Positions 35,783-55,846 of a stretch of 64,000 bases of DNA are shown piece by piece (position 1 is the first letter of the stretch; each line of letters starts with the position of its first letter). The stretch is taken from contig CP064983.1 of assembly GCA_016699635.1 (NCBI GenBank), positions 3,176,078 through 3,240,077 on the forward strand. The letters are read 5' to 3'. The stretch comes from Bacteroidota bacterium (GTDB taxonomy: Bacteria; Bacteroidota; Bacteroidia; AKYH767-A; OLB10). The notes under the pieces were generated by a model. It was not told the DNA's origin, made no database searches, and was given only the letters and a program-made list of their open reading frames with translations. Made by a program: the position numbers and the translations under genes.

Positions 35783-38700
35783 TTGTTGCTGCTGCTTTTT
35801 TTGTTTTCTGTCAGCTTACGATTTCAAAAAGTTCAAAGTTGGGTTGTTGATCGTGTAACAGGATATCTATCATCCGAATTAAATACAACAGTACATATTG
35901 GCGGGGTAAGGTTTGTATTGATAAAAAGTGTATATCTTGATGATGTGTTTATTGCCGACAAACAGCAAGATACGCTGTTGTATGCCAAACACCTTACAGC
36001 AACAGTGGCTTTTCAGTCCTTGTTTATCAGGAATAAAAAACTGATTCTTGATGAAGTGCAGTTGGACAAAGCGCGAATAGCATTATCAAAGTCGAAGAGC
36101 ACAAGAGATATGAACTTCGATTTTATTATAGATTATTTCAGTTCTCCTTCAAAAGACACTACATCATCACCATTTTATTTTGCCGTGAATAGGGTTATTT
36201 TAAGCAATATACATTTCACTTATCGCGATTTTAAGTGGGATGATAAAACACCTTGTATTGATTTTGAAGATATTGACGTGTCAGACTTTAATGGAACACT
36301 TTACAATATAAAGCCAACAGACAGCTCGTTTTCATTTTATGGAAGTAAAATATCTCTGAAAGAAAAATCAGGATTTAAAATAAACTCTTTTCTACTTATG
36401 CTGCTTTTTATAACGACAGCATGTCGTTTAATAAAATTCTGTTGCGCACACCTACTCTTCTATTGATGCCGGACACTACAGTATGTCGTATAACAGTATG
36501 ACAGACTTTGAAGACTACATCAATAAGGTAATGATGAAAGGCGAGTTTAATGAAAGCACAATTTCTTCAAACGACATTCAGTACTTTGCCGAAGAACTTT
36601 TTGGCCTAGATAAACGTGTTGAGTTTAGTGGTACTGCCAGAGGAACGGTGAGCAATCTAAAAACCAAAAAACTTAAAATTGCTTATGGAAAGAGCACACG
36701 ATTTGAAGGTGATGTAAGCCTTAATGGTTTGCCTGATGTAAATACAACTTTTATAAATCTAAACATAAAACATCTTTCAACCAACAAGACCGATATTGAA
36801 ACCATTAAACAATATCCATTTACAGAGCAACAATATATTAAATTGCCTGATAACATTTCTGAACTTGGTAAGATTGTTTACAGAGGTGTTTTTACAGGAT
36901 TTTATAACGACTTTGTTTCGTATGGAAATATTACAACAGCAATCGGCAACCTGTCAACCGATGTAAATTTAAAATTCAAAAACAAGGCAAATGAGTCAAC
37001 TTACTCCGGTAAACTCACTGCCGACAACTTTGATATTGGTAAATTCTGGCGATTGGGAAATGCCGTAGGAACAATCAGTTTTAATGCACAGCTAAATGGT
37101 ACAGGATTTACATCAGAGAAAGTTAATGCACGTCTGACAGGTTTGGTAAGTCATGTTAATTTAAATGGCTATGATTATTCAAACATCAACTTAGATGCTG
37201 ATGTGGCCCGGAAACTTTTTAACGGAACATTAAACATGAATGACAGAAATGCACAGGTTTCATTTAAAGGAAGTATTGATTTCAGAGAGAAACTGCCTTT
37301 GTTTGATTTTAATGCTATAGTTAAAAATGCCGCATTGACTAAACTTAATCTGCTAAAAAGAGATACATCTGCCCTACTTTCTACTGAAGCAAATCTGAAC
37401 ATGCGCGGGTTTAATTTTGATGAGTTTGAGGGAAAACTGCAACTTAAAAATATTAGTTATTCAGAAGAATATAAATCTGCTTTTGTAGAAAAAATATTGG
37501 TTCAGTCAGGGATGGAGAATAATAACAGAAACCTGAATGTGAATTCCGATTTACTGGATTTGAATATTAATGGTCAGTATATTTTATCAAAAATTGTCTA
37601 TTCATTCGGTCATGTACTTAACTGCCATCTGCCACCATTCATGCTTAAATTATCACCTGATGTAGAAAAAACTAATACTATTTTTTCATTCAGTGGAAAT
37701 ATAAAAGATGTAAATCCTGTGTTGAACATCTTTACTCCGGGATTGTCTGTAAGTAATCAAACTGAGTTTTCAGGAAGGCTGAATCGTCAGCATTGCGAAA
37801 TAGAAGTGGATGCAACATCACCCTGGATTAATTACAAAAATTTCGAAAATAAAAACATTAAACTCACATCAAACAATAAGAACAATTTATTAAATATTGA
37901 TTTATCTGCCTCTCAGGTTAAAATTTCTGACAGTTTAATTCTGAAAAATATTTTACTTGATGCAGAGACACAAAAAAGCAAATCATCCATTGTACTTACA
38001 GTTGCCAACGATTCACTCTCTACCTCAAAAATGAGACTGGCAACAGAGCAGACTTACACAAATGGAGCGACACGTTTTCATTTGCTTGAGTCTTTGCTTC
38101 AGTTCAAAGGCGAACAATGGCAGGTTGATCCGGCAAACGAAATTTTATTCGACTCAGCATCTATTTCTTTTGACAAGGTGTTGTTCACCAACAAAAGTCA
38201 GTCGCTTATGTTGCAGGGCAAAGTAGGAAATAGTAAAGATGATGTGTTGAGCCTGAATTTATTTAAGTTTAAGGTTCCCTTAATAAATGATTTACTGGCT
38301 ATGTATGATATCAAGTTAGGTGGTGCTGCAAGTGGTAATTTGAATTTCAGTTCACTCTATCAACGAGCAATCATCACCGGTGAAATGCGAGTGGATAGTT
38401 TTGCGTTTAATGACGAACCATTGGGAAATGCCATCGTGAATTTTGATTGGCTGACAGACCAAAAGAAATTGCATATTGAAGGTACCATTGAACAAAACAA
38501 CAGAAACAGTGCTGTTGTAAAAGGTGACTATATTTTTAAACCAAAAAATGATGAGCTGAGTTTTAATATTAAAGTTGACAAACTTAGCATAACACCTTTA
38601 GAAAGATATCTGAATGGTTTTGCAAGTAAAATTGTAGGATTGGCAACAGGAGAGTTAAATCTTACAGGATTGGCAAAAGCACCTAACCTAACCGGCAAGG

Positions 38701-40112
38701 CCCGATTACAACGTGCATCTATGGTAATTGATTATGTGAACACACGCTATTCTGTTTTACCGGAGCAAGATATTATTTTTGATGAAAAATATATTGCATT
38801 TAACAAAGTTGGAATTTCTGATGATCAGAATCACAAAGGCACTGTTGATGGAAAAATATTTCATAATCATTTTAATGATTTCACTTTCAGCCTTAGAGTT
38901 GATGCAAATAAACTTCAATGTCTTAACACGAATGCTTCTCAAAACGAATTGTTCTATGGCAAAGCTTTTGCAACCGGATATGCAAAAATAATCGGTACGT
39001 TAAACCTGATGAAATTGGATGTAGTGGCACGTTCTGAATCAGGAACACAAATATTTATTCCGCTTTCAAACCCTGAAGAAGTAACACAGAGTAATTATAT
39101 CAACTTTATCAATGTGAATGATACTGCTGCCAAAAAGTTTGTGGTAACAAATAAAGTTGATTTATCAGGCATACAAATGGATTTACAACTTGAAGCAACG
39201 CCTGAGGCAGAGATTCAGCTGATATTTGACTCTAAAGTTGGTGATGTGATGCGTGGTAATGGATCAGGAATTTTAAGGATGCAGATTTCGCAGGCAGGGG
39301 AATTTTCCATGTATGGTGATTACAATATTCTTGCAGGTGATTATTTGTTTACACTTCAAAATATAGTTAACAAAAGATTTAAAATTCAGAGCGGGCTGAT
39401 ACAATGGGCAGGCTCGCCTTACGATGCAACCATCAATATCAATGCAAAATACAACCTTCGTGCATCAACGTTTGATCTCATTCCTGACTCCTCAAACCGC
39501 AGCAGAGTACCGGTGGAAGTATTGCTGCAGTTAAAAAACAACTTAATGAGTCCTGATGTTATTTTTGACGTAAATGTGCCAAATGCCACTCCTGCTGTGC
39601 GAACAAGTCTGAGTAGTATTTTAGGTAATGAGCGCGAAATGAACAGGCAGGTTTTCAGTCTGCTTGTGTTAAACCGTTTTTCGCCACCGGAAGGAAAAAA
39701 CACCTCTGAAGAAAGTGGTTCCGGCAATGCAGTTGGCCAGAATTTGAGTGAATTTGTTTCGCAACAGCTTTCGAATTGGGCATCGCAGTTAAGTGATAAA
39801 TTTAATATCGGTGTAAACTATCGTCCGGGCGATGCACTTAACAGAGATGAGTTTGATGTATCTATTTCAACAGAATTGTTCAGAAACAGAGTTGCTGTTG
39901 AAAGTAATGTTGGTGTTGCCAACAACAGCAATCAGACTTCAAGTATTATTGGCGACTTTCAGGTTGAATTTAAAATCAGCAAAGACGGCAATCTTCGTGC
40001 AAAAGCGTTTAATAAAACCAACACCAACAATTTGATAAATAACCTTAACTCACAATACACTCAGGGAATTGGTGTTTTTACAGAAAAGAATTTAACACTG
40101 TTTCAGACTTAG
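35783..40112 (+). pseudogene. tamB: Translocation/assembly module TamB-like (AsmA-like N-terminus, DUF490 C-terminus), ~1440 aa, frameshifted at ~36380-36480
   Basis: ORF1 has an N-terminal TM segment. The 1209-aa ORF2 is full of the amphipathic beta-taco repeats typical of TamB. The true start may lie upstream of 35783. Confidence 0.6.
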
Positions 40113-40152
40113 TTGAATCGTTCAGAAAAAGAAAAAAAACTGCTGCACCAAA

Positions 40153-41349
40153 CTAAATTTCCATCAGCGAGCTGCTTCCTCCTACCCAGGTTTTGTTCTT
40201 ATTGTGGCTTACACCAATCATTGCACCTTTACTTAATCGTGTAAGATTAAGCACTAACTGCGGTTTGGTTTCAGCATCATCCCAGATATAGAGTAAACGA
40301 ACTTCAACCTTTGCAGCTCCATCGGGTGTTTCCATGCAAGGCACATAATTTACTTTTCGCTGTATCAAAAATTCATTTCTTTTTTCCTTTGGAATGTTTT
40401 CAACGTCTGACGATGTTACATCTATCAACACACCACTGCCTGCAAAGGAAAATAGCGGCTTCAACACAAAATCAGCAAGGCTTAATTTTGATGTGTCAAC
40501 ATCACTTAAAAAGTAACATTCCGAAGCAAATCTGCTTTTAATAAATGGCATGGTGTATTTACTGATTCTAAAAAACCAATTTGGATGTCCTGCCCATTCC
40601 ACATCTACATCATCAGTCAGATTGAAATCTTTAATCAGGTCTTTTCGTTGCAGCAACTCGTCAAAAATAATTCTGTTATAAATTCTGTAAATGGGAGTTT
40701 TTACCCCATTCAAATCATAAAACAATTTTTTTCCCTCTTTAATCACCTTCGAAATACAAACCGGTTCTACTCCTGTATATGTTTTTGTTTCCCAAAAGTC
40801 AATCCATGTTTTTTGTTTTTCGGGTTCTATTTCAAGCAAGATAACATTCTCGGGTTTATGATTTCCAAGAATAACTTTTCGCATCAATGCACGATGCTTT
40901 TCAGTATTCCATCCATCAAAAAAATGGCTGAAACCTTCAGGTATCTGAAAATATTTAGCATAAGTGCGCGGCAACAAATCCTGCCAGAAAAAAAGAGAGG
41001 CAAACCCTTGCAGTTCTATCAATTGCGGCAAATAATTTCCATTATCATCTTTGCAGATAGCGAAATCAATTGCAATAAAATGTGGATGTTTATTTTCATT
41101 CGGAACTTTTAATCCATGCGGAATAGCTTGTTCACTTTTTAAAAGATATTCAGGAGTCAGTGATTGAGATAATATTTCATTACCGGCTTCAACTAGCAAA
41201 TCTTTTAATTTTTTTGGAATAAAAACTGGCGACTCTGCAATTCGGAATTCTACTTTTCTATTGTAAAGGTTATCATAATAAGCTAAAAAATCCGAGTATG
41301 TTTCTTCCTTAAATTCTCTTAAATATTTATCTCTAATTTCTTTAATCAT
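40153..41349 (-). CDS. Hypothetical protein, possibly ATP-grasp-like
   Basis: VLKPLFSFAGSGVLIDV and the C-terminal EVRLLYIWDDA...GAMIGVSHNKNKTWVGGS resemble ATP-grasp B/C subdomains. The family is not recognised with confidence. Confidence 0.35.
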   Translation of the reverse strand: MIKEIRDKYLREFKEETYSDFLAYYDNLYNRKVEFRIAESPVFIPKKLKDLLVEAGNEILSQSLTPEYLLKSEQAIPHGLKVPNENKHPHFIAIDFAICKDDNGNYLPQLIELQGFASLFFWQDLLPRTYAKYFQIPEGFSHFFDGWNTEKHRALMRKVILGNHKPENVILLEIEPEKQKTWIDFWETKTYTGVEPVCISKVIKEGKKLFYDLNGVKTPIYRIYNRIIFDELLQRKDLIKDFNLTDDVDVEWAGHPNWFFRISKYTMPFIKSRFASECYFLSDVDTSKLSLADFVLKPLFSFAGSGVLIDVTSSDVENIPKEKRNEFLIQRKVNYVPCMETPDGAAKVEVRLLYIWDDAETKPQLVLNLTRLSKGAMIGVSHNKNKTWVGGSSSLMEI

Positions 41350-41366
41350 GTGTCAAAAATAAAAAA

Positions 41367-41390
41367 GGGTGACTTATTTCTAAATCACCC
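41367..41390 (-). terminator. Rho-independent terminator for the 41409..41813 gene
   Basis: gggtga-cttatttctaaa-tcaccc, followed on the minus strand by a T6 run. Confidence 0.5.
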
Positions 41391-41408
41391 AAGTAAAAAA
41401 TTTTCAGC

Positions 41409-41813
41409 TTAAAGTTTTTTTATCTCTCTTTCTGTAACCCACTTATCTTTAAAAACTGTTTTATCATATTTTATATGATATTTATTTTCTCCAACTTCAA
41501 TTACAGTTGCAGGTTCAGGAACCATACCATATTCCACTTCAACCCTATCTCCAACCTTAAATTTTGTCAATGGTTGTGCAGGCGCTTCTTTTGCAAAATC
41601 TTTTAAACGATCAATCGTAACCCACTCGTTCCAACCTTCATCCCAACCATCATAAGAAACATAATAGGTGTGATCATCGGCATTAATTTTCAAAATTTTA
41701 CCGGGATACCATGCGCCTTTTGAATTTATTTGTACTTTCTCGTTAACTTTTTGCGCATAAGTAAAAGTTAAAAACCCTAAAAAGAACAAACTTGTGAATA
41801 TTAGTTTTTTCAT
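41409..41813 (-). CDS. Small secreted protein with two tandem Tudor/SH3-like (agenet-like) beta-barrel modules
   Basis: A signal peptide is followed by KGAWYPGKILKI...YYVSYDGWD and a second repeat KVGDRVEVEYG...PATVIEV..KYHIKYD. Confidence 0.45.
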   Translation of the reverse strand: MKKLIFTSLFFLGFLTFTYAQKVNEKVQINSKGAWYPGKILKINADDHTYYVSYDGWDEGWNEWVTIDRLKDFAKEAPAQPLTKFKVGDRVEVEYGMVPEPATVIEVGENKYHIKYDKTVFKDKWVTEREIKKL

Positions 41814-41960
41814 TTTATTTAATTTTCCCCAAATATAGTATTTAATTCAGGTTAGGGACGCCATTCTACCGCTAATTTATAAACCTCATAAAAAATTTAT
41901 CTTCGTGTATAGAATCCTACCAGTCCGAATCAAAATTTTGTTTGATTTGCATACTGTAAA

Positions 41961-43215
41961 ATGGTTCAGGAAAAACGGGCTTTAATCTTTAATTACTTAT
42001 TCTGGCTTACAGGGTTTTTGTTACCATTTGACCAGCCTTGGATTAATTATGCGCTTGGCCTGTTGCTTTTATTTTTTGTTGTGCAATGGCTGACAGGAAA
42101 ATATCAGATTAAAATTCAGAACCCTTTGTTGTGGCTGCCTCTCTCTTATTTTCTACTGCATTGTATAGGCATGCTTTACACTCAATCGCAATATACTGGT
42201 TGGATTGAATTATCGGCAAAAAGTTCTTTCCTTATTTTTCCACTACTCTTCTCGTCCAATGCCATTTCGCGTGATATAATTAAGACCTTTAAGTTATTTT
42301 TTATAGCAGGAAGCGGAATAATTTGCCTGTATAATCTGCTGCTGTCATTCAATCAATATATTCAGCATGGCAACATGAGTGCATTTTATTATGTCGCTTT
42401 TTCCAAAGGTATGCATGTGCAGTATCTGACAATTTATTTAAACCTTGCTATATTATTTATTTTAGAAATACTTTTTGACACTTCCTCTCAAACAAAACCA
42501 ATCAAAAAAGCTTATTGGGTATTATTGGTCTTGTTCTTTTTAGTCAATATTACCTTGCTTGCCAGCAGACTTGCCACCGTAGTATCTTATGCAACAATTT
42601 TGTTTTATACCGTTGTGAGAATTATTTCATCACCAAATTACCTACGATACTCCATTCTTGCAGCATTGTTTGCAGCTTCTGTGCTGATTATAGATTATTT
42701 TGCATTTAAGAAGATTAACCGCTTCGAGCAGGTCGAAATATTTTAAAAGAAAACACAAACTATGTTGACTTTTCAAAAACTGAATATAACAGCACCACGT
42801 TAAGAATTCCACTTTGGATAAATGCTTATGAAGTCATTCAGCGCAATCCTTTATTTGGTGTAGGCACGGGCGATGTTAAGTCAAGTTTAGATTCTATGTA
42901 TCTGAAAAATAAATTTACTTATGCCCATCAGAATCACTTCAACCCACACAATCAGTATCTACAAACGGGAGTTGCTTTTGGACTGACAGGAATTTCTTTT
43001 TTAATGTTAATGATGCTTATTCCGCTCTATTATGCAATCAGGAACAGACATTATATTTTCATTGCATTTCAATGTATTTTTTATTGAATATGCTCACAGA
43101 GTCAATCTTAGAAAGGCAGGCGGGCATTATTTTATTCTGTCTTTTTTATGCCATTTTCAGCTCTGAATATGTTGCCGCAGCATTAAAGACCGTACCCGAA
43201 CAAAACAATACGTAA
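41961..43215 (+). pseudogene. O-antigen ligase / Wzy_C-domain polytopic membrane protein, split into >=4 frames
   Basis: Wzy_C hallmarks appear in different frames: TTLRIPLWINAYEVIQRNPLFGVGTGD and AHQNHFNPHNQYLQTGVAFGLTG. The C-terminal tail runs to 43215. Confidence 0.55.
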
Positions 43216-43237
43216 TTTTACAGCCTAATTTCAATTT

Positions 43238-44460
43238 ATGAAAGTACCATTTGCGCCACCTCGCATGGACCAACGTGTCATTGATGAAGTTGCAGACACA
43301 CTTCTTTCGGGCTGGATAACAACAGTGCCTAAGACTAAAAAGTTTGAAAAACTACTTACAGCATACTGCAATGTGCCTAATGTGCTTGCCCTGAATTCTG
43401 CTACTGCAGGTCTTGAAATAATGCTTCGCTGGTTTGGTGTAAAAGAAGGTGATGAAGTAATTTTACCGGCATACACCTACTCTGCTACTGCCAACGTAGT
43501 GATTCATTGTGGTGCAAAACCTGTGTTTGTTGATGTGGGTGATGATTTTAATATTCTGCCCTCTGAAATTGAAAACGCCATCAACAAAAATACAAAGGTG
43601 ATTATGCCTGTTGATTTTGGTGGGCTGCCCTGCGATTTTCAAAAAGTAAATAATATATTTCAATCAGAAAATATCAAAAATAAATTTGTGCCTGCAACCG
43701 ATGTGCAGCAGCAATTAGGACGCATTTTAGTTTTGTCTGATGCTGCACATTCTTTTGGCGCTACTGTCAACAATATTAAAACTGGAGCGCTGACCGATGT
43801 TTCTGTTTTTTCTTTTCATGCTGTAAAAAACCTAACTACAGGTGAAGGTGGTGCCATTGCATTAAACCTGCCAAAGCCTTTCGATAATCAAAGCATATAT
43901 GACTATCTGTGCATTTACACCTGCATGGACAGAATAAAGATGCACTGGCAAAAAATGCAAAAGGCAATTGGCGTTACGATATTATTGAAGCCGGATTTAA
44001 ATGTAATATGACAGATATTATGGCGTCCATTGGTCAAGTAGAACTTGAACGCTATGCAGAAACATTAGAACGCAGAAAACAAATTGTTGCAAACTACAAT
44101 GAGGCATTTGCAAAATATCCATGGGCGCAATTGCCCGAATTTAAATCAAACTGGCGTGAAAGCTCCTATCACCTCTATCCTATCAGAATAAAAAACTGTA
44201 CAGAAAAACAACGTGATGCCATTATGCAAAAAATGTTTGATGCTGATATAGCAGTGAATGTACATTTTATTCCTGTTCCTATGTTTTCGTTTTATACCAA
44301 ATTAGGTTATAGTCTTCAACATTATCCCAAAGCAAAGGACAACTATGAAAGAGAAATTTCTTTACCGCTTTTTTACAACCTCACCGAAGAACAACAACAA
44401 TATGTTATTGACAATTTGATAAAGGCTGTGAATAAGACGCTGTACATCACTTGCAATTAA
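43238..44460 (+). pseudogene. DegT/DnrJ/EryC1/StrS-family PLP-dependent sugar aminotransferase with a frameshift at ~43905-43925
   Basis: DALLSGWITTVPKTKKFE...SATAGLEIML is followed by the Schiff-base lysine region FSFHAVKNLTTGEGGAI, then NMTDIMASIGQVELERY in a second frame. Confidence 0.75.
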
Positions 44461-44920
44461 CTCCTGAATGATTTTGTGCTTTTCTTCTTCATTAAAATAT
44501 TCTGTGCTTTTTGAATGATTTTTTTGCCCATGTTTTACACTTTTTTTGTGTAACTCTATTTTAGGGCAAGACATTGCAGGTTTTCAAAAGATTCATCTCC
44601 TACTTTAACCTCCCGATAGCTATCGGGATTATCAGACTTAATTCTCTTGTGCCATCGAATATAAATTTGATACAATGTTAGGTCTTCTTGTTTTAATTCC
44701 GGTGTTATAACCTAACTGCCGCATCCATCTAAGAAGCTGTCCGTGTTCTTCAACCTCACCTGTGTATTTTTCCCAAATCTGTACTTTGGTACATTGAGTT
44801 GCAATTAGCTCCTGAATGATTTTGTGTTTTTCTTCTACGGCAAAATATTTACCCGCTTTTTGAATGATTTTTTTATCCATGTTTTACACTTTTTAGTGTA
44901 AACCTATTTCAGGACAAGAC
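44450..44920 (-). mobile_element. Degenerate IS3-family remnant: two direct copies of a ~130-bp segment (44450..44578 and 44796..44920), an orfA-like gene, an 18-bp perfect palindrome, and no orfB/integrase
   Basis: Both copies begin ttgcaatta(a/g)ctcctgaatgattttgtg and end gacaagacat. The palindrome tcccgatagctatcggga lies at 44610..44627. Confidence 0.55.
44638..44880 (-). CDS. IS3-family transposase OrfA-like HTH protein (80 aa; remnant)
   Basis: KYFAVEEKHKIIQELIATQCTKVQIWEKYTGEVEEHGQLLRWMRQLGY fits the HTH_Tnp_1 pattern (F..E.K..IV.E......I..KYGI.....L..W.RQ). Confidence 0.5.
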   Translation of the reverse strand: MDKKIIQKAGKYFAVEEKHKIIQELIATQCTKVQIWEKYTGEVEEHGQLLRWMRQLGYNTGIKTRRPNIVSNLYSMAQEN

Positions 44921-44943
44921 ATGTGTGTGCTTTTGTGTGTTGG

Positions 44944-45363
44944 CTACTTTGCATTTAGTTCTTCCCTTAGTTTATTCATTGAGTTTTCAAACAGTTTATT
45001 GCTTTTCAATTTACATTCCCAAATAGTTAATACTGTCCAACCTGATTTTTTTAATTCTGCCTTTACTTTTTTGTCTCGTTCAATATTGTTCTGAATTTTT
45101 GTTTTCCAAAATTTTGCATTTGAAGTTGGCAACTTTGCCTTGTTGCAATTATGTCCATGCCAAAAACATCCATGAACAAAAACTATCGTTTGATACTTGG
45201 GTAAAACTATATCTGGTGTCCCTGCAAGAGTTTTTACATTTTTCCGAAACTTAAATCCTTCTTTAAACAAAAACTTTCTGACTGATATTTCCGGCTTAGT
45301 TTCCTTCCCGGAAATTGAAGCCATAATTTCACTTCGTTTCCGTTTAGAAAAAATGTCAGCCAT
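44944..45363 (-). CDS. vsr: Very-short-patch-repair endonuclease (T:G mismatch-specific)
   Basis: The Vsr signature is FVHGCFWHGH...TPDIVLPKY...VLTIWECKL. The start overlaps the upstream gene's end by 8 nt. Confidence 0.85.
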   Translation of the reverse strand: MADIFSKRKRSEIMASISGKETKPEISVRKFLFKEGFKFRKNVKTLAGTPDIVLPKYQTIVFVHGCFWHGHNCNKAKLPTSNAKFWKTKIQNNIERDKKVKAELKKSGWTVLTIWECKLKSNKLFENSMNKLREELNAK

Positions 45364-47137
45364 TTAATGCACGAATTGATTCAATAATTGTTACAATATC
45401 GTTGTAACTATTTGGTTTATCACTCAGCCACTTTTCTAAAAATGTTTTCTCACTTGCTTCAATATTTCTCTTATCACCAGTCATTGCCTCCGCAACTAAA
45501 AGAAATTTCTCTTTGAAATCTTGTGTAGCGTTGATTCTTTGAATGTATTCAATTTTACCCATCGCAGTCAAAATAGTTTCAGCTAAAACTTGATTCCAAA
45601 TAATTTCTTCTGGAACTGATAATGGTAAGTAGGAAACATTTCGCAAATAAAATTTCAGATACTTTTCTCGCAACACTTTTTCTTGGTCTGCTCTTGCCCC
45701 TGCATTTGGATTTCCGTCAGGATAAAACTTAACATTGACTCCTGTTTGATTTTGGATTTCCTGTTGGTATCGTTCATTGGTTTGTTCTGCTGCTACAATA
45801 GAATCAGGATTAAAGTGAGCATGTCTTTGGTCTCCGTCAAAAACTATAAACTTATTCCGTTCGTTTGCATGACTGTAAACACTAATGAAATGTTCTTTAA
45901 TAACGCTTTCACCTCCCGTGTAAAAAGTAACATTGAAAAGTGAAGCAGTTGCTTGTCCTAATTCTCTTAATACACCATCAATAATTTGCTTTGAAAGCAA
46001 ATCTTCAACAATGATTTGTTTTCCTTGCCGGATTTGTTTGCTCCAAATGATAAAACGCTTCATCAGGTGTGATTTCATTTTTAACATTGAATTTTCCAGA
46101 AGGTAATAGTGAGAAAACTTTTATTGCGTTTGGCGGAAGTTCCTCAATAATACTTGGTGAGTGGGTTGAGATTACAACTTGTAATCTTTTTCGTCTTGTT
46201 TCTTCAAGCAAAAATTGCTTCAATCGTTTTTGCGCTCCCGGATGCAATGAAACTTCCGGCTCATCAAGTAAAATGAGAGAATATTCTTTTGCTCCTAAAA
46301 CTTCAAGCACCAACTTTACAACTGCCATTTCTCCGCTTCCTGCAAACGCTTCGGAATATGAGTAACTGGCGGTTTCAAAAATTACGGAGTAGCCCCATTC
46401 TTCAAAAAGTTTATGCTTTACAAACTTTCCCGAAACATATTTTTTACCAAGTATGGTAGAAATATGCTGAAGTTCAATTGCTGTGAAAGTTTTGAGTTGC
46501 TCGTTTTTGTTTTCACCGTAGCGATGAATTATAACATTTGTTCCGTCAATAATTCTTCGAAGAAAAACTGAATGCTTCCGTAAGTAGTCCTGTTTGTTAT
46601 TTATCGTTTTAGACTTTCTTGGTTTCTTGAAATAAAAGTATTTGTCAAATGCACTTAACTCTGAACGGAAATCAATATACACTACATCTTTTTCAATCGG
46701 TTGATTTCTTTTTCCCTCTGCTATCTTCTGCATTCCGTAGCTGATATTCGGTCTTGCAGTTTCCCAATAGTCCGGATTGTTTCGTTTGAAAATTCTTTGT
46801 TTCAAAACTTCAAGCGGTCTGCCACGATTGTCTTTGTAAACATAAAAGAAGCTATGCCTATCGCCTCCTTCCGAAACTTCTACAATCGGGTCAACAGCAG
46901 TTGAAAACCAAAATTCAAACGGAGTATTTTTTTCGGTGCTCCATAAAGTGCATGAAGTGTTGAACTTTTTCCCGAACCGTTTTGCCCTACAAAAACTGTC
47001 AGAGGAAAATCAAAAATTATTCGTGTGTTTTTTTCAAGGTTTCGGAAATATGGAAACTGAATATACTCAATGAAATTTCTGAAAGCATTTCTTGCTTTCA
47101 TTCTTGAAATTTCAGCTATGAGAGTTGGTATATTCAC
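45356..47137 (-). pseudogene. OLD-family nuclease-like protein: ABC-type ATPase (Walker A/B, D- and H-loops) fused or coupled to a C-terminal Toprim domain; three ORFs in shifted frames
   Basis: ORF 46880..47137 has Walker A VGQNGSGKSS. ORF 46005..46805 has Walker B/D-loop LILLDEPEVSLHP and H-loop ISTHSP. ORF 45356..46087 has Toprim motifs IIVEDLLSK and FIVFDGDQ. The ORFs overlap by 83 and ~75 nt. Confidence 0.6.
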
Positions 47138-47142
47138 AAATG

Positions 47143-48770
47143 CTATGGTTTTTCAGAGTCGTTAAGTCGTTTGAATAAATGAGATAACAAACTAAGGAAG
47201 TCCAAACAATCTTTTTCTGAAAACAAACCTGTTTTACTTAACTCAAGGTGTTCCTCGTGTTGCAAAGGGTTTCTGCCGCCTGCAACAATACCTTCGGATA
47301 GATAGTGTTGTCCTTCTTCAATATTGGTTATTGTATCTTTTGTAAAATCTGTTCCATCAGTTTTCTTATACTTTTTCGTTACCGAAAGTTTACGACCAGA
47401 AAAAACTTCTCCCATCATACTTCTTTCGCTGCCATTTGTGCTACCTGACTTCTTTCTTACTTCTGAGGTATATCGTTTTAATGCTTCAATAAAAGCCGTG
47501 TAATAGTCAGCACTCTGATAATATTTTTCAGACACCACTTTAATTTCATTTTCTAAATTTCTCCAATGGAGATTTGCATATTCAGGGGCTATATCATGCA
47601 ATAATCTTGTCACCACCTGTTGTGTGTCTTCTGAAATTTCAGGTGTGTCATCCAATAGGTTTACAATTGTTTCAACTTGCCCTTGCACATTTTGAGGAAG
47701 TTTTTCTAACCAATCTTTTACATTCAAGTTTACCTTTTCACTTATCTTCTTTTTCTTTTTCTCCTTACGAAATTCACGCCACTGCCTTTCTATTATTGAA
47801 AGGCATGATGCAATATATTTCCTGAGTGCGGATGTCTTGGCATTTTCCCAGTCAATGGATTGACGGTTTGTTGAGATTACATCTTCTTCCCAATTGTCAA
47901 TAAAATCTACATTCAACCATCCTGTGGCATAAGAATAAAAGTGGCTTGATTCTGATGGACCAAAAAATTCAGGTGTGTTAACCATTCTGCCGTTAGCAAA
48001 AAGTGTAACGCCTCTGAGAGCAGCTTTGAGAGGTTTTTCTGTGGTAATTATTGTTCCATGAATTTGAACTTTGTCGGAATAATCCTTCTCATTTACTTTG
48101 ATAATTTCTTGTATGTCCCACTCAAATTCAGGAGTAATGTTATCATACTTCAGTTTGTTATCAATCTTTATCGGCTTGCTATCATTCAGCAATAAGTAAA
48201 CAATAAACTTGTCTTGAAAGTTGAAAAGTTTTGCAATGCTTTCTGCATATTCTTCAAGAGGAAATCCGGTTTTTCTTTTCAGATTGGTTAATGTGATTCT
48301 TGTTCCTTTGAAAATTTCCTTTTCTGATAAATGGTCAAATCTGGGTTCATAATCTTTCCCTTTCCAAGCAAGTATTTCATTCCAGTCAAGATTGAAACTT
48401 ACTCCCGATTTTCCTTGGCAAGTTGTAATGTTTATAGTGTCGCCAATTCCAAATAGAGCTAACTTTCCTAATCCTTTTTTTCCTGTTGGAATTCTATCGC
48501 AACTTGATTTTTGACCTTCCTCTCGTCTGTTTCTTCCTATTCTTAAAAAGTAATCATTCACTTCCGCAAACGACATTCCCGTTCCGTTATCCTCAACAAT
48601 TACTTTTTCTCCCCTTCGTCATACAAACGCACATGAACCTCTGTAGCACACGCATCATAAGCGTTTGCAATTAATTCCGCTAATGCCGGTGGCATGTTGG
48701 AATACATTTTAACACCAAGATGTTTTATGGTGTTAGCTTCAAAGGTCATGTAAAGTTTATCATTGCTCAT
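47143..48770 (-). pseudogene. MutL/MORC-like GHKL ATPase with a C-terminal HEPN (Rx4H) domain; frameshift at ~48577-48600
   Basis: ATG at 48770 overlaps the dcm stop as ATGA. Bergerat motifs: N-box ELIANAYDA, then in the 477-aa ORF frame G1 (DNGTGM), G2 GKKGLGKLALFGIGD and GTRITL. The C-terminal HEPN motif is GGRNPLQHEEH. Confidence 0.6.
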
Positions 48771-49844
48771 TTCGGATTACAATTTATGATGCTTGCAGCA
48801 ACACGCATTGATAATTGCGGTGGAACCGCATTGCCAATCAATCTTGCTGTTGATGCAATTGAAGTAGAAAGAAATTTGTAATCAGTGTCAAAAGTTTGCA
48901 GCGTTGCACCTTCTCTTAATGAAATGGCTCTGTTCTGTTCTGGATGAGCAAATCTTCCGTTGGTTATACTATAAAACTTTTGTTGTGATTGTTGGTCCAG
49001 GTTTGTCCCAAAACATTCTACCATAGATGTCTTGAAATGAGTTGTCTTTGCCAACATAAGCCGGAATTTGCAAGTCAGTATCTTTCCACGAAGTTCTTGT
49101 TCCTCCGTCATGTGGAGTTAAGAGCAATCGCTTTAAATTATTGTCTGATAGTCCGGCTGAACTGTGAAGGAACTCCGTCTTATCTTTTTGCCCCGCTGTA
49201 ATTGGTTTGAAAACCTTTTTATTGCCAATGAAATTCCGAACTGTCGGCAGCTTTGTTTTTGTGTCGGGAAGTGGCAAAGATATTTTGTCGGTAACTCGTG
49301 ATGCAATCAACAGGAATCTTCTTCTTGTTTGTGGCACTCCGTAATGGCTGGCATTAATTACTTTGTATTTGTAGTGATAGTTTTCTTTTTCTAGAAAGTC
49401 AAGAAATGATTTCAAAGGGCTTTCATCTAAACGATTTAAAATCCCTGGAACATTTTCAACCACTATGTAACCAGGTTTGAAGTAATCAACAAATCTCTGA
49501 AAGTCCTTCAATAAGTTTTTTGTTTCATGTGCCTTAGTTTTATCGGTTTGAATCTTGCTCCAGTATTGGCATGGGCTGCACCCAATGAAAATCATTTTTT
49601 TGTCATTGCGTTTTACTTTCAGCTCTTTTTCAATTCTTGAAAAAGCTAAGTCCTGAATGTCAGCATGTATAAATTTTGAATCGGGATTATTAGTTGTATA
49701 CGTTTCTTTACACTCTAAATCAATATCAATTCCGCCAACAACGTTTACTCCTGCCTTCCGAAAACCGCTTGTCATGCCGCCTCCGGAACAGAAGAAATCC
49801 ACAGCTTTAAATTTTCTTTTTGTCTTTGATTTTTTACCTTTCAT
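48767..49844 (-). pseudogene. dcm: DNA (cytosine-5)-methyltransferase, frameshifted between the TRD and motif IX
   Basis: Motif I is DFFCSGGGM, IV is GCSPCQYWS, VI is ENVPGIL and VIII is QTRRRF. In a second frame, IX is RAISLREGATLQTF and X is GNAVPP. The junction is at acaaaagtttta. The likely start is the ATG at 49844. Confidence 0.8.
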
Positions 49845-49904
49845 AAACGGCTGCGAATTTATGATTTTCACTCTTAAATTCATACGAAATCGCAATAAAG
49901 CGTT

Positions 49905-49966
49905 GGCAAAAAGTGGCTCTTTTTGTTTTGCCTCTGTGGTGGGTCGTGTGTTGCGGCAAAACAAAA
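49905..49966 (-). promoter_or_regulatory. Overlapping alternative hairpins in the dcm 5' leader
   Basis: ggcaaaaag/ctttttg (49905-49925) and ttttgttttgcc/ggcaaaacaaaa (49921-49966, 22-nt loop) share the ttttg segment, so they are mutually exclusive. Confidence 0.3.
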
Positions 49967-50339
49967 TGTGCCACTTGTGCGGTTGCCATAGAAATCATTT
50001 TTTTTTGTGCGTTGGCGGTGTTTTAATTTTTTGAAGGTTGCCTGTTGGTTAGAAGTGCTGTCATAATTATTACTTGTCATCTTAAATGTTTGTTCAAAGT
50101 CCGTCCGTTTAATGTCCGCATGGTCGCAAATAGAGTTACCGATAACGAAGAAGGGATTAACGAAGTTTAAAAAAGAAGGAGATAGAAAGCACACACTCTC
50201 CGCACCGATACGCTTTATTACCTGCACTCACTTTCAAGTGGCTGTAATGCCCTTCTTTTTTAAATTTCGTTTAATCTATTGTTATGCGCGCGTGCTACGA
50301 TCTACACGAAGAGTCAGATCTATATTCACTTATTATAAA

Positions 50340-50930
50340 TTACAATGGTGTTATTAAAACTTTTAATCTTCCATCACCGTCCCATTCTGCTTGAGTTCCG
50401 TTTAGTCCTGTTCTTCTCATTGTTGCTCCATTTCTTGATGGTAATGCTTTGATTTGGTCACCTGGTTTAATTCCTCTTACAACATACTCATTGCTTACAA
50501 GATTTTGTGCAAGACCATTTATGCAACGTCCTCCATTTGTAACTTCTGGTCTTATAATTTTCAAATCTTCAAAATGTTTATTTACAGCTTGACCTTCTAA
50601 GCAGAAATTAACAAATTCTTTCTCACCTTCATCTGTTTTAGACCCAACATCCATGATGACAATCTTGTAATCACCCGCTTGAGTAAATTCATAAGCACCC
50701 CAAGCACTTGCAGATTCTACAATAAAATTAGAGGAATGGATCGTGGTTGTATAGGCAGGTGTTATCATTGCAGAGACAGGTGTTTTGGTTATAGAGTCAG
50801 GGGCTGTTATTTTAAAGCCAGGTGTCACTGCTGTGGTTGTGGTCGTAGTGGAAACTGATTTTTTTCCGGTGCCACAGGATGATAAGAAAAATACTATTGA
50901 GATAAGAGTAATGGGTATTAATTTTTTCAT
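50340..50930 (-). CDS. Lipoprotein of unknown function
   Basis: A signal peptide with lipobox FLSSC is followed by a Thr-rich linker TTTTTT. Confidence 0.55.
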   Translation of the reverse strand: MKKLIPITLISIVFFLSSCGTGKKSVSTTTTTTAVTPGFKITAPDSITKTPVSAMITPAYTTTIHSSNFIVESASAWGAYEFTQAGDYKIVIMDVGSKTDEGEKEFVNFCLEGQAVNKHFEDLKIIRPEVTNGGRCINGLAQNLVSNEYVVRGIKPGDQIKALPSRNGATMRRTGLNGTQAEWDGDGRLKVLITPL

Positions 50931-51169
50931 TGCATGTAAATTTATTTTGTTTTGCTTACTCTTTGACGGATTTTCAGCTTACTCCATATTATATATTGGT
51001 GTCAATGTTTATTTCTTCCGATCACTTTCAAAATTAGCACTCCCCCCAAGCATGACGCATAACATTTATATTATCAACACTCACAATTCACAAATTTATT
51101 CATTTTGAAACAAATATAAAAATTATTCGCAACTCAAGGTGCGGATTATCGCAACTGTCAAAAGCGTAG

Positions 51170-51300
51170 TTTGCCTTAGGAAGTTTGAATGTTTGGCAAG
51201 TTGCAAGGTTTAGAAGGTTACAATGTTTTGAATGTTTGAAGGTTTTGAATGTTACAATGTTTTGAAGGTTTGAGGGTTTTTAAAATGTTGTTGCCTTGAA
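51170..51300. repeat. Short-period tandem repeat tract
   Basis: Units aaggtt(t/a)/gaatgtttg/acaatgttttgaa recur about 8 times. Confidence 0.5.
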
Positions 51301-51339
51301 CTTGCAATGTCTAAATTGAATTCTCTTTCAAAATTTTCA

Positions 51340-51545
51340 AACTTTTCAGCCGTGGCTAATTTTCAAACTTGTCAGCCGTTGCTGATTATCTAATTATCAA
51401 ATTTTCAAATTACCTCAGTATTATTTACTCCATCACTCCTATCAGCCGTGGCTAATTTTCAAATTATCTAATTATCAAATTTTCAAATTACCTCAGTATT
51501 ATTTACTTCATCACTTCTATCAGTTGTGGCTCAGCCGTGGCTGAT
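51340..51545. repeat. Two direct copies of a ~65-bp unit, each bounded by the motif tcagccgtggct(a/g)at
   Basis: The unit tctaattatcaaattttcaaattacctcagtattatttact(c/t)catcact(c/t)ctatcag occurs at 51388..51452 and 51466..51528. The motif tcagccgtggctaat or a variant occurs at 51346, 51372, 51442 and 51530, and on the reverse strand at 33306. Confidence 0.55.
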
Positions 51546-51654
51546 TATCAAATCATCTCATTTTCAAATTATCAAACTCTCTTTATCATTCATAAAAAAA
51601 AACACCGAAATCTAAAAAACTGATTCCGGTGTTTTTCTAAACGGGATTATTCTT

Positions 51655-54600
51655 TTACCGTTTTATAATCTTTGAATTGTAAAATTTATTGTCTGCTTTT
51701 ATTTGCAGATAGTACATGCCTTGTGAGATATCATTCAGCGGCATTTTATAAACATCTGAAATGATATTAGCTGCTGAATACACCAGCTTACCATCCATTG
51801 CAAATAATTTCACTTCAACATTTTTAAAATCTTTGGTAATTATGGTTAACTCATCCTGAGCAGGATTGGGATAAACAGTTACACTATTGATAGAACTAAA
51901 ATCTTTAGCCGAAGTTACCATTGTTGATGGTGGAAACTGAATATTATCGAGCATAGCCAAATCCTGTCCGCCCGTGCAACACACTTCATCCTTAATATAT
52001 GCCCACGTGAGTGTATGTTGTCCTAAAGTTATCGGATATGATTTATATGCCCAGCCATACACACCGGAATAGGAATCAATCAATGTACCATCTATGTAGA
52101 AACTGAGAAAATCCCATCCCATTTCACTTGATATGAGCATATAAAACGAAATAGAATCGTTGTTATAAACATTTACTGTTATTGCCAGATCAGAAGTGTC
52201 GCCATCAGCAATTGTTGCAGAACGTGCAGAATACGCCCCTTGAAAAGTTCCGCTGTTAGTAATAGTCCATGGATGACTTCCATTATTAAGCCAGGGATAT
52301 GTAGTGAAATTTCCGTATTCGAAATTCTCTAAAATCTCCCCTGCAACCATGTTAAATGTCTTGTTGTCGGAATATGGGTTGGCATCAATATTAAATTGCA
52401 TATCGAAGGTTGAACCAATCTGAATGTTTGATGCAAGTGAGACATTAAAGGTAGCATCAACATCAGATAATGACTGTACAACACCTGTATTGTACGAAGT
52501 ATTGTTGATAGTAAGATATGGACTGCTTGTTGCCAGCGTTGCTGTTGAAGCTGTAGTTGCACTATGTCCTTTGTTATTTGTCTTTATTGTAACATCGGCA
52601 GTTTCACCTGGTTCAAGAATACCGTTGTTGTTTCCTGTAGGGTCAGACACTGTAATGGAATATACTTGCAGCATAGGTGCTTTCAACAAATGTGTTATGG
52701 ATGTACTCCACACTGTACCTGCTGAATCGGTTAATACAATATCAAATACTGCAGGTGTGTTATCAGGAACAAAAGCTGCAACAGTGTAATTAAATGCATT
52801 GGTAATTCCAGCAGCGTTTCCACTCTGAATATTCACTTTGTTTAAACTGCTGCTGTTTATTGTAACATACGGACAAGTAGTAGTTACCGTAAGTCCAACC
52901 CCCACAGCATCGCCCTGTCCAAAGTTTTCAAGCATTAAGTCAACATCTATAATCTCATTATAATCTGCAAGTTGATTTGCATTTCCTCCTGCATCATTAA
53001 TAACATTGCTTGTCAGCGAAACGTAAGGTCCTGTAGTTGCTACAACAGGAATTGCCACCATGTATGGAATGCCGTTAAATGCAGTAATTGTTAAATACAG
53101 AGTATCGAGTGCAGTAATGGTGTTGAAATTTAAAATTACATTCCCTCCTATCACCAATCCTGTTGCAAGTATTTGTCCATTGCTGCTCAAACATGCAAGT
53201 CACTGTCTGTATTACAGGCAATATTTAGTGAAGCACCGGGAAACAATACAGGGCTGTGACTAGCAGTAATTGCATAAGGTGTTGCTGTACGAACATTTAA
53301 TGAAGGGTCGCCAAAACAATGCCATGTGTCTGTCATTTCGAAACCTGCTGCACCATACTGATCATTCATGTGCATGCAGCCATTCATACTCAGTCCGCCA
53401 AAAGTTCTTTTAATGTTTGAAGAATTTGTGCCAACCAATAAGTCAACCATTTCGTCCTGTGCATCCATTGGCGGATTCCATGATTGGTTTATGCTCGACA
53501 TAAATGTGGCTACTGCACCTGAAGGCTGTCCATTATATTGTGCTCTCAAAAATGATTCTGCAAGACAAGTAGCATTTGCAAACTCTCCATTGACACAAGC
53601 TACACTCCAGATAAAAGGCAACATGCCTGTGTTTGTTAATGCTGTTGCATTGGCATTAGAAAAACCTGTTGTGCCTAATGAAGCAGAACTTCCATGACCA
53701 GTATAAGTGATTATAGAAGCACCATTATTTATTTCTGATGATAACATTGCAGCAGTAGGATTACCCGACATATCGTTTCCACCTTGTGAGCCATCATACA
53801 ACTCAGCAACATCAGTATAAGTGAATGCTAATTCTTTTCCGCGTATCACCTGCTGATGCTGAAAGTCCATTTCATTGTCATCACCCGGTCCTTGGTCAGA
53901 GCCAATGCATATTCCTTTTGAATACCAGTTTACACCTGGCGTTGGCAACATTTCATAATCAACAGTACGCTGAACTTGTGTAGTAACATCTGCCACTGTC
54001 TGTGCACTGAATCGTCCAACAAATACTTCTGCATAAGAATCATTCCCCACAAGATAACCATACGATGGGTCAGATGCACCACCTGATAAAACAGGAGTGG
54101 GAATTTGTTGTGCATCGCCTACCAACAAAACATATTTCAGATTATGTGTGTTGTAATAATTCTGAATGAATGTTTTTATCTGTTGTGCTGTGCTGCCTGC
54201 TGTGGCTACATCAACCATTGAAACCTGCAAGCCTCTTTTTATCTTCCAGTCAATAAAGGGCTGCATAGCTGCCATAAAAGATGCATCACTGATAATGAGC
54301 ATTTCACCATCTTCATTCACCGGTAAATAATTAATAAATGAACCTGCATTGCGAAAAACGTTCTGATAGATATTTGCAAAATCACGATCAACTTTCTGGA
54401 GTGATGTTGTGCGAGATAATGTATTAACAGAAGTGCCGGCTTTACTTTGCAGGGTAACTTTAAATTTTGAAATTACTTTTAAAGTTTGTGTTGCTGCATT
54501 ATAGCTGAATGGATTTACTACCACTGTCTGCCCACGAAAATCACGAAGTATAAACGGGCTACGCAAAAAGCCACTGTTAGCAGGAAAAAAAACATTCTGA

Positions 54601-55025
54601 CTGTAAATATCTCCAAAGCGATAAGGCACATCAGATGGCTTAATATCTCTGTAAAGATTTCCTTTAGATGGTGCTATCTGAATATTCTGAAAAGTAAGTT
54701 CCTCAATTGACTCAATATTCAGGCTCATATCTCCGTCATCAGGAATAATCACAGATAAAGCAAACTTTGGCAAATCCGGTGTTCCTTCTTCCATTCTTGG
54801 AGTCATTTCGGGGCTTGAAATGGTATAGTACTCTCCTGCTAAAGATTTTACTCTGTGCTTTTCAAATCCTGAAACAGAAATTTCCATTACAGTATTATCA
54901 GGTGTACCACTTACTATAACAGCAGATTTTGAAGGATTGTCAGAGGTAATCTTAACCCATTCTGCATTTCCCTGTAAAGCAAACAATGCTATAAAGAAAG
55001 TGGTAACGATTGTCTTTTTTTGCAT
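51655..55025 (-). pseudogene. Gingipain-like C25 cysteine peptidase with Ig-like/FN3-like domains and a T9SS C-terminal sorting domain; frameshift at ~53190
   Basis: The 612-aa ORF has a signal peptide, the catalytic His block ITYTGHGSS and the Cys block IWSVACVNGEF. The 511-aa ORF, overlapping by 4 nt, ends in the CTD VYPNPAQDELTI...MYYLQIKAD. Confidence 0.7.
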
Positions 55026-55205
55026 GACTAAATTTGTTTACTCAAAATTAAGTCTTTTTTTGAATACTATCCGTGATTTTAACAAAATAATTTACCACAG
55101 CCCCTTGTTAACTTTGTTGAAATATTTTTTCAGGTTAGTGAATAATTGTTTCTGAATCTGAAGCAAAAAACTAATTTTGCACTTATAATTCAATCTTATT
55201 TATAC

Positions 55206-55846
55206 ATGGCTGTATATCGTTTTAAAGTATCGTTCGAAGATTTTGAAGATATTTATCGTGAAATAGAAGTTACCTCAGAGCAAACCTTTGCCGATTTTTA
55301 TAAAGCTATTCTGTCTTCAATAAAATTTGAAGATCGCGGAACAGTTTCATTTTTTATGAGCAATGACAGTTGGAAAAAAGGTGTTGAAATTTCCAACAAC
55401 GACAAAACCGATCGTGATGGAAAACCTGTTGCTAAAACCGACAAAGCATTTCTAAAAAGTTATATTGCTGATCCGCATCAGAAAATTTTTTTTTAATTGA
55501 CTGCGAAAGCGTTTGGGCATTTCATATTGAATTGATAAAGATTATGGCTGCTGCTGATGTAAAACTTACTTATCCGCACATAAGAAAAGTTTCGGGTGAT
55601 GCACCAAGCCAGTTTAAGGTTAAAGTAGCACCGGTACCTGACGAAGGTGACGAAGTATTGGATTCAGATACCAACGAAGATGATAATTTCAGTTCAACTG
55701 CTAATGAAATTGCAGGAGAAAATGATTATGATGAAGATGACACAGCAGCTCTTGAAGGTGAAGAAGGTGAAGAAAGTTCTGACGAGGATAGTGAGGAGTT
55801 TAATGATGTTGAAATGGGCAGTGATGAAAATTACGAAGAAAATTAA
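55206..55846 (+). pseudogene. pRiA4b ORF-3-like family protein with an acidic C-terminal tail; 1-bp frameshift in a T9 run at ~55487
   Basis: MAVYRFKVSFEDFEDIYREIEV continues, after the t-run, in another frame as FLIDCESVWAFHIELIKIMAAADVKLTYPHI (the family's YDFGD.WEH..E motif). A D/E-rich tail follows. Confidence 0.45.

Follow-up and report, generated by a model that had tools for sequence, protein, structure and literature searches.

Three minus-strand open reading frames (ORFs) beside a vsr gene on contig CP064983.1 of a Bacteroidota bacterium (GenBank assembly GCA_016699635.1) are one gene for an OLD-like ATPase-nuclease. The stretch analyzed here, referred to as the window, comprises 64,000 nucleotides (nt) of this contig (positions 3,176,078 to 3,240,077), and all coordinates given for it are counted from its first base. 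We regard the product as an OLD/HEC-04-like ATPase-Toprim protein in a restriction-modification (R-M) setting, encoded in the window by a copy that has very probably been damaged by error and in the natural population by an intact gene.

One gene read as three open reading frames

The first of the three ORFs (46880-47137, 85 amino acids (aa)) contains the P-loop GQNGSGKSS within VFVGQNGSGKSSTLHALYG, the second (46005-46805, 266 aa) carries SLILLDEPEVSLHPGAQ together with VISTHSPSII, and the third (45356-46087, 243 aa) carries IIVEDLL and FIVFDGDQ. The second and third ORFs share a stretch of 83 nt (46005-46087), and the third runs 8 nt into the beginning of vsr (44944-45363). The initial annotation had reported the ORFs beside vsr, these motifs and the 83-nt overlap, and all were found as described. 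Pfam places the front of AAA_15, AAA_23 and SMC_N in the first ORF and the back of AAA_21 and AAA_15 in the second, indicating that the two are halves of a single ABC-type ATPase; no Pfam family matched the third.

In a three-frame translation, the first and third ORFs lie in the same frame and only the 912 nt between them are out of frame, owing to a deletion and an insertion of 1 nt each. Repair of these two single-base homopolymer differences yields an ORF of 593 aa that is 100% identical, with 0 mismatches, to the intact protein P0001, which 24 metagenome contigs from this organism carry in identical synteny. The repaired translation finds homologs at E=0 with about 100% coverage, far beyond chance, and a hand-joined translation matches P0001 at 99% identity along with thousands of weaker relatives. 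The initial annotation had proposed a single polypeptide of about 570 aa broken by indels and had suggested that the ORF be called again; the single polypeptide is borne out by the intact frame so obtained, but its length is 593 aa.

To trace the origin of the frameshifts, the window was compared with eight retrieved contigs (L001-L008) of the 24 that bear P0001. These share the gene order of the window (Wzy_C, DegT, a 108-aa ORF, vsr, the 593-aa gene, GHKL-Ymh, dcm and a C25 peptidase), with every one of these genes intact, including a GHKL-Ymh gene of 542 aa and a dcm of 358 aa. The window and L001 are 99.7% identical over 21.8 kb. Their alignment contains 35 mismatches and opens 20 gaps, mostly homopolymer length changes and mostly deletions on the side of the window. 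The cassette itself measures 4.9 kb and spans 7294-12194 in L001; here no substitution separates the window from any of the eight contigs, and the only differences are four single-base indels: one in dcm, one in the GHKL gene and two in the ATPase-Toprim gene. Of the 23 indel columns in the comparison of the window with the eight contigs, 19 concern the window alone, and comparison of the contigs with one another shows 157 sites with substitutions and almost no indels. Private frame-breaking indels occur in the window at about one per kb, housekeeping genes included, and DegT, Wzy_C, TamB, dcm, the GHKL-HEPN gene and the 108-aa ORF are all broken in the window and intact in up to eight contigs.

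Because indels break frames at about one per kb in essential genes without accompanying substitutions, we attribute them to homopolymer miscalling rather than to pseudogenization or phase variation. Taken jointly with the identity of the gene, an assembly or sequencing error is a very likely cause of the split. Outside the contig-covered region, an E1 dehydrogenase gene is also split (58589-60665, minus strand; Pfam E1_dh positions 3-133 and 137-297 lie in adjacent ORFs), as is a PKD/Por_Secre_tail protein of the type 9 secretion system (28630-32629, plus strand), and both are consistent with the same error process.

Alternatively, the frameshifts could be real, with A7 and CAAA as true alleles of a decaying or phase-switched-off copy in the source strain. 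Inactivation and phase variation are frequent among R-M genes. In one strain an insertion sequence (IS) disrupts the NmeAI R gene (PMC3787668), a homolog of the present gene (L018) is interrupted by a 2.6-kb insertion, and both indels in the window sit in short A runs. However, similar private indels occur at about one per kb in the flanking DegT, Wzy, TamB and E1 dehydrogenase genes, the 4.9-kb cassette combines four indels with zero substitutions, and all eight independent contigs carry the in-frame alleles without length heterogeneity. The tracts in question (A7/A8, CAA/CAAA) are below the length of classical phase-variation tracts. Given the short tracts, the lack of length heterogeneity in the population and the same errors in housekeeping genes, we reject phase variation, and we consider genuine frameshifts of any kind highly unlikely. 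A truly hypermutated source strain would also speak against a sequencing error and leaves a small residual doubt.

A natural arrangement of two or three genes with separate ATPase and Toprim proteins, as in AriA/AriB of PARIS, had also been raised by the initial annotation and has next to no chance of being correct: although the third ORF starts with ATG and could in principle be translated alone, and although a search gave some C-terminal-domain entries of only 200-300 aa, those inspected begin mid-domain and look like fragments, in all complete homologs the domain occupies approximately residues 370-600 of one protein with roughly 550-650 aa, a Walker A half of 85 aa and a Walker B half cannot function when encoded apart in different frames, and the split is private to the window while the fused gene is present in the strain's own population. 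As a whole, the window should be taken as a quality flag, since readings of split genes, pseudogenes or two-gene systems within it are suspect until it is polished.

An ABC-type ATPase joined to a Toprim-like domain

Residues 1-345 of the intact protein form an ABC-type (SMC/Rad50/OLD-like) ATPase in which all catalytic motifs are present. Pfam assigns AAA_15 (1e-18), AAA_21 (1.5e-18) and SMC_N to it, and a family profile searched against PDB sequences matched AriA, Thermus OLD (6p74), PtuA, Rad50 and UvrA, the matches covering the part of the ATPase with signature, Walker B and H-loop. The motifs by which an OLD-family ATPase is recognized, from Walker A and the signature to Walker B, D-loop and H-loop, were all found. 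No variation was seen among 60 homologs in Walker A, the SGE signature, DEPE or the histidine of the H-loop (Table 1).

Residues 370-593 were modeled with AlphaFold2 as a four-stranded alpha/beta domain with a Toprim pattern, followed by a helical bundle. The predicted local distance difference test score (pLDDT) was 88.6 for the full-length protein, modeled on the 60-homolog alignment, and 93.3 for the domain alone. More specifically, the predicted order is beta1(373-377)-alpha-beta2(401-405)-alpha-beta3(429-433)-alpha-alpha-beta4(501-503), with E378 and D379 at the end of beta1, G408 and G409 after beta2, the pair D434xD436 at the end of beta3, E510 after beta4 and K542 further on. All of these residues (E378, D379, G408-409, D434, D436, E510 and K542) are invariant in a 60-sequence alignment. 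In a broader alignment of 39 sequences, E378, D379, G409 and D434 remain invariant, and the others, D436, E510 and K542 among them, are at least 90% conserved. The acidic residues that the initial annotation had singled out for checking, the Glu and the DxD, are thus invariant or nearly so across the family.

Comparison with known structures and defense proteins points in the same direction. With the whole model, the best Foldseek matches were Thermus OLD (6p74, ranked top), GajA and the retron Eco8 effector, three solved proteins with an ATPase and a Toprim domain, all ranking above the ATPase-only PtuA and SMC. When C-terminal sequences alone were searched against PADLOC, 13 of 16 matched HEC-04 (best 2e-6) and 11 of 16 matched HEC-01B (best 3e-5), and nothing else matched consistently; the C-terminal domain alone matched the HEC-04 model at 1e-4. 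The C-terminus of HEC-04 superposes on the Toprim domain of Burkholderia OLD, and its E319, D375 and D377 are required for defense (Payne et al., bioRxiv 10.1101/2024.01.29.577857). Furthermore, an ATPase-Toprim ORF from an IncI1 plasmid aligns with P0001 from Walker B onward (BLASTP 3e-16, 32% identity), the alignment spanning IIVEDLLSK/ILVEDVLAK, GG and FDGDQR/LDGDVR, and a profile of C-terminal sequences only matches the same ORF in hhalign at P=7e-5. Motif 1 (IIVEDLL) also aligns with LLVEG of E. coli YbjD.

The plasmid ORF is itself unannotated. It encodes 503 aa directly after the replication gene of E. coli plasmid CP057019.1 (L043, 1850-3361), its best PADLOC model is the retron I-B ATPase-Toprim (ATPase-Toprim_I-B, 3e-40), and it may be an IbfA-like defense gene that is absent from the distributed annotation.

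Several searches weigh against a Toprim assignment or do not favor it. Pfam, run at E values up to 10 on the C-terminal domain and 39 diverse members, returned no Toprim, DUF4435 or RloB, and PF20469 (OLD-like_TOPRIM) matched 0 of the 39 members. No match was obtained for the C-terminal profile against PDB sequences. The isolated domain (pLDDT 93) gave a best Foldseek E value of 0.2 against PDB, with GajA second (E 0.4, probability 0.41), and a best E of 1.3 against BFVD, none of these being significant, so that the Toprim fold cannot rest on Foldseek with the isolated domain. Likewise, hhalign against the OLD-Toprim domain of YbjD, a PF20469-positive protein, gave P=0.05-0.12 with a single sequence and with a 31-sequence alignment; one run placed the motifs in register, and the PEEIIW segment aligned locally with LPALDMEH of YbjD, neither significantly. 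The Toprim fold anticipated by the initial annotation is supported by the conserved motifs, the predicted strand order, the whole-model matches and the significant similarity to the Toprim regions of HEC-04, HEC-01B and the IncI1 protein, but not by Pfam, the comparison with YbjD or Foldseek with the isolated domain. On balance, the C-terminal 220 residues likely form a divergent Toprim domain that has about 45 residues inserted between beta3 and beta4 and ends in a helical bundle.

Like class 1 OLD proteins (P2 Old, Thermus scotoductus OLD 6P74 and YbjD), the protein combines an N-terminal ABC ATPase with a C-terminal Toprim-type acidic site. It differs from OLD in the additional residues between beta3 and beta4, matches the OLD and GajA models of PADLOC weakly, and is encoded in the dcm operon, between the GHKL gene and vsr, whereas class 1 OLD genes stand alone. 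PARIS (AriA ABC ATPase and AriB Toprim) and Gabija (GajA and GajB) likewise couple an ABC ATPase to a Toprim nuclease, and both AriA and GajA are among the sequence or structure matches of the ATPase part. PARIS, however, consists of two genes instead of one, and Gabija requires an adjacent UvrD-like helicase (GajB), which was found neither in the operon nor in its flanks, in the window or in L001-L008; neither system is linked to a methylase. The initial annotation had placed the protein in the class-1 OLD/GajA type. The OLD-like architecture holds, as the structural matches indicate, but the class assignment is not borne out, because PF20469 matches no member, no GajB helicase is adjacent and a methylase lies within 4 kb of the gene in 15 of 15 other loci. 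The published classes of OLD proteins (stand-alone, Gabija, retron and PARIS; PMC10568477) include none that is linked to a methylase.

A close similarity exists to the ABC ATPase-TOPRIM proteins of HEC-04/IbfA and retron I-B type, which have the same two-domain order in a single polypeptide. The best PADLOC match of the whole protein is HEC-04 (8e-36), over profile positions 157-391 of 494 only, and the spacing of 56 residues between the Glu and the DxD (E319/D375 in HEC-04) is the same in both. Differences lie in the N-terminal third and in the helical bundle at the C-terminus. In addition, the present protein is about 90 aa longer, and its family is tied to a C5 methylase, while HEC-04 and IbfA work by themselves.

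Table 1 Features of the ATPase-Toprim gene, its operon and the indels private to the window (window coordinates).
Feature	Position	Strand	Remarks
One gene, 593-aa ABC ATPase and Toprim-like nuclease (predicted)	45356..47137	-	Read as three ORFs in the window via two single-base indels
First frameshift site	46927..46933	-	A7 in the window, A8 in 8/8 related contigs; 1-nt deletion in the window
Second frameshift site	46016..46018	-	CAAA in the window, CAA in 8/8 contigs; 1-nt insertion, original frame restored
Walker A / P-loop GQNGSGKSS, residues 51-59	46961..46987	-	G51, N53, G54, G56, K57 and S58 invariant in 60 homologs
Walker B and D-loop LILLDEPEVSLHP, residues 288-300	46239..46277	-	ABC signature AGSGE (residues 266-270) just upstream
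H-loop THSP, residues 325-328	46155..46166	-	H326 invariant in 60 homologs
Toprim-like motif 1 IIVEDLL (E378, D379)	45995..46015	-	End of predicted beta1; invariant in the 60- and 39-sequence alignments
Toprim-like DxD motif FIVFDGDQ (D434, D436)	45827..45850	-	End of predicted beta3
PEEIIW (E510), candidate further metal ligand	45596..45613	-	After predicted beta4
Conserved K542	45512-45514	-	From the alignments
vsr, very-short-patch T:G mismatch endonuclease, last operon gene	44944..45363	-	Pfam Vsr 3.3e-33; TIGR00632 7.5e-43
GHKL ATPase (HATPase_c_3) and Hypoth_Ymh/HEPN, 542 aa intact	47143..48770	-	1-nt deletion in the window near 48603
dcm, C5 cytosine DNA methyltransferase, 358 aa intact	48767..49844	-	1-nt insertion in the window near 48978
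Window-private single-base indels, mostly homopolymer (36387-55488), part 1	36387, 36450, 40074, 42740, 43076, 43919, 43955, 43958		
Window-private single-base indels, mostly homopolymer, part 2	44441, 44646, 48603, 48978, 50032-50035, 53200, 53227, 55488		

Linkage to C5 cytosine methylases

In this genome, the ATPase-Toprim gene occupies third place in a compact operon with the order dcm, GHKL-HEPN (NmeAIP-like), ATPase-Toprim and vsr. Besides the 8-nt overlap with vsr, the junctions consist of a 4-nt overlap between dcm and GHKL-Ymh and a 5-nt gap between GHKL-Ymh and the ATPase-Toprim gene. The methylase is recognized by PF00145 (1.7e-54) and TIGR00675 (4.7e-43). The first 380 aa of the GHKL protein match the BbrUII/HgiDII restriction-enzyme model (1.2e-64) below its cutoff, the equivalog score not being reached; NF050001 gives 219 bits against a cutoff of 550 and covers profile positions 2-407 of 659 only. 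Its combination of HATPase_c_3 and Hypoth_Ymh is that of R.NmeAIP as listed in REBASE (PMC2441816). Ymh is a HEPN domain, and its fusion to paraMORC GHKL ATPases in R-M neighborhoods has been described and likened to PrrC/RloC (PMC3710099); in the present protein the HEPN motif Rx4H reads RNPLQH.

The operon thereby resembles m5C (5-methylcytosine) R-M systems of the NmeAI/HgiDII type, with which it shares a C5 methyltransferase and Vsr in one operon as well as a GHKL and Hypoth_Ymh protein like R.NmeAIP (PMC2441816; PMC3787668). It differs in that the HgiDII C-terminal domain is absent from the GHKL protein, with HEPN in its place, and NmeAI has been described as three genes without an ATPase-Toprim protein (PMC3787668).

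The association with a methylase extends well beyond this genome. Among 15 other loci, with homologs 37-82% identical, a C5 methylase lies within 4 kb of the ATPase-Toprim homolog in all 15, directly beside it where the layout was resolved. The methylase-linked loci represent at least seven phyla and come from Bacteroidota, Planctomycetota, Bacillota, Beta- and Gammaproteobacteria, Nitrospirota, a Gastranaerophilales metagenome-assembled genome (MAG) and unclassified MAGs. The methylases share just 24-76% identity with one another, beside a well-conserved ATPase-Toprim protein. The C-terminal domain family comprises about 256 clusters at 50% identity, and in complete proteins the domain is always C-terminal.

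The remaining content of the loci varies. Dcm, GHKL-Ymh and ATPase-Toprim, with or without Vsr, occur in Kuenenia and Rhodohalobacter. In L009, L014 and L040, Dcm is followed by a GHKL+HEF_HK protein, Response_reg_2 and ATPase-Toprim, again with or without Vsr; L015 and the insertion-disrupted L018 match this layout in part, and the architecture of the GHKL and histidine-kinase protein of these loci is that of R.EcoUTORF4938P. Dcm and ATPase-Toprim are accompanied by a 640-aa GHKL protein in L041 and by Vsr in Clostridium. A different arrangement is seen in Tenacibaculum xiamenense (L016, 3642-7743), where the family member lies directly downstream of a complete HpaII pair, in the order M.HpaII-like, R.HpaII (PF09561, 1.8e-141) and ATPase-Toprim. 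Five loci showed Dcm and ATPase-Toprim with no further system-like gene, and since the neighbors scanned there are unrelated housekeeping or mobile-element genes, the pair looks like the whole module in these five. Minimal pairs of this kind are found, for example, in L020 and L021.

Two of the loci show further features. In Ca. Kuenenia stuttgartiensis (L010/L011, 5316-10214), the same four-gene cassette is found at 74.5% nucleotide identity, with the two ATPases 78-82% identical and Dcm and Vsr 60-69%. The GC content of this cassette is 34.8%, compared with 40.7% in its flanks, and a DDE transposase and a Type IIG-like enzyme adjoin it, a pattern suggestive of horizontal acquisition from a donor of low GC content. 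In L018 (3016-7407), roughly 2.6 kb of inserted DNA, possibly an IS element, interrupts the family gene between alignment residues ~136 and 129.

Additional elements were noted around the operon in the window. Two short ORFs with the common motif EEKHKIIQELIA follow vsr (44362-44880, minus strand). The upstream one (44638-44880) is a single ORF of 108 aa without a Pfam match in the contigs, cut to 80 aa in the window by a 2-nt deletion at 44646. On the other side, an Rfam DUF805b RNA motif (50953-50987, minus strand; 36.2 bits against a gathering score of 35.6) lies immediately upstream of a 196-aa lipoprotein-like ORF (50340-50930). In the intergenic region between this ORF and the C25 peptidase gene (51183-51531), a 78-bp unit is repeated in tandem 1.9 times (51385-51531, 94% match) and a 17-bp unit 4.9 times (51188-51270).

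Proposed role in restriction or defense

The adjacent cytosine methylase suggests a role in restriction or defense. As a tentative proposal, to which we give a little less than an even chance, the ATPase-Toprim protein would be the ATP-driven nuclease or motor subunit of an m5C R-M system. The methylase would mark and protect the host DNA and would probably supply sequence recognition, as Mod and HsdM do for Res and HsdR; recognition supplied in this manner fits the pairing of a well-conserved ATPase-Toprim protein with methylases of such low mutual identity. The ABC heads would engage on unmodified DNA in an ATP-dependent manner, leading to two-metal cleavage by the Toprim domain, while the GHKL-HEPN protein could act as an accessory clamp or back-up RNase, with GHKL modules being optional. 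Vsr would repair the T:G mismatches arising from 5mC deamination and thereby limit the mutational cost of the system. Taken further, the family might constitute the motor-nuclease of an unclassified ATP-dependent R-M type in which the C5 methylase gives target recognition, a possibility that we hold to be doubtful; in such a type, optional GHKL modules (of HEPN, histidine-kinase/receiver or HgiDII type) could add control. Our overall confidence in the analysis is fairly good, as a blend of the very likely gene identity and artefact with the more tentative mechanism.

Several observations weigh against a restriction enzyme. The characterized relatives, namely P2 Old, PARIS, HEC-04/IbfA and the retron Eco8 effector, are sentinels or abortive effectors, and P2 Old and AriB cut tRNA (bioRxiv 10.64898/2026.07.10.737580; PMC11464382). 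Furthermore, the Tenacibaculum locus is the sole context in which a classical restriction enzyme is already present, and a 34%-identical plasmid homolog has no methylase nearby.

In the principal alternative, the protein is a guard or abortive-infection effector, a sentinel similar to PrrC, PARIS or HEC-04 within a methylase system. It would remain latent as long as the methylase or R-M complex is intact, and once a phage disables the complex it would cut tRNA or DNA and stop the infected cell. The tRNase activity of P2 Old and AriB and the R.HpaII gene beside the family member in Tenacibaculum fit this role, as does the best match in the defense library, HEC-04, a validated single-gene defense (bioRxiv 10.1101/2024.01.29.577857) whose relative IbfA causes abortive infection (PMC12111858). 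The architecture of the neighboring GHKL-HEPN protein has also been predicted to be PrrC/RloC-like (PMC3710099). However, the five loci with a methylase and an ATPase-Toprim gene alone contain nothing else to guard, M-R pairs typically show the kind of strict linkage seen here, with a methylase in 15 of 15 loci and ORFs that abut or overlap, and HEC-04 and IbfA act without any methylase. A guard function is possible, but we would not expect it.

A self-contained very-short-patch repair system, with the GHKL protein as MutL and the ABC ATPase as MutS aiding Vsr at Dcm-derived T:G mismatches, is very improbable: Dcm, GHKL, ABC ATPase and Vsr do parallel the players of E. coli very-short-patch repair, and a MutL analogy has been drawn before for R-M-linked GHKL proteins (PMC2292703), but the ATPase belongs to the OLD/AAA_15/AAA_21 group and not to that of MutS, it carries a conserved nuclease-type acidic site, its partner bears the HEPN RNase motif (PMC3710099), and many loci that lack Vsr and GHKL still have the methylase and the ATPase-Toprim gene.

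Database records already list the gene under the names 'AAA family ATPase' or 'ATP-dependent nuclease', and no description of a methylase-linked OLD-like ATPase-Toprim protein was found in the searchable literature. The family joins an ABC ATPase to a Toprim-like domain unseen by Pfam and is tied to C5 methylases across at least seven phyla. If the restriction role proposed above is true, the ATPase-Toprim protein would be a candidate DNA nuclease for GHKL 'restriction' cassettes, such as those of the NmeAIP type, that have no assigned nuclease domain. The family would then also represent a fifth, methylase-linked context class of OLD-like nucleases, and the first in which these act with epigenetic discrimination between self and non-self.

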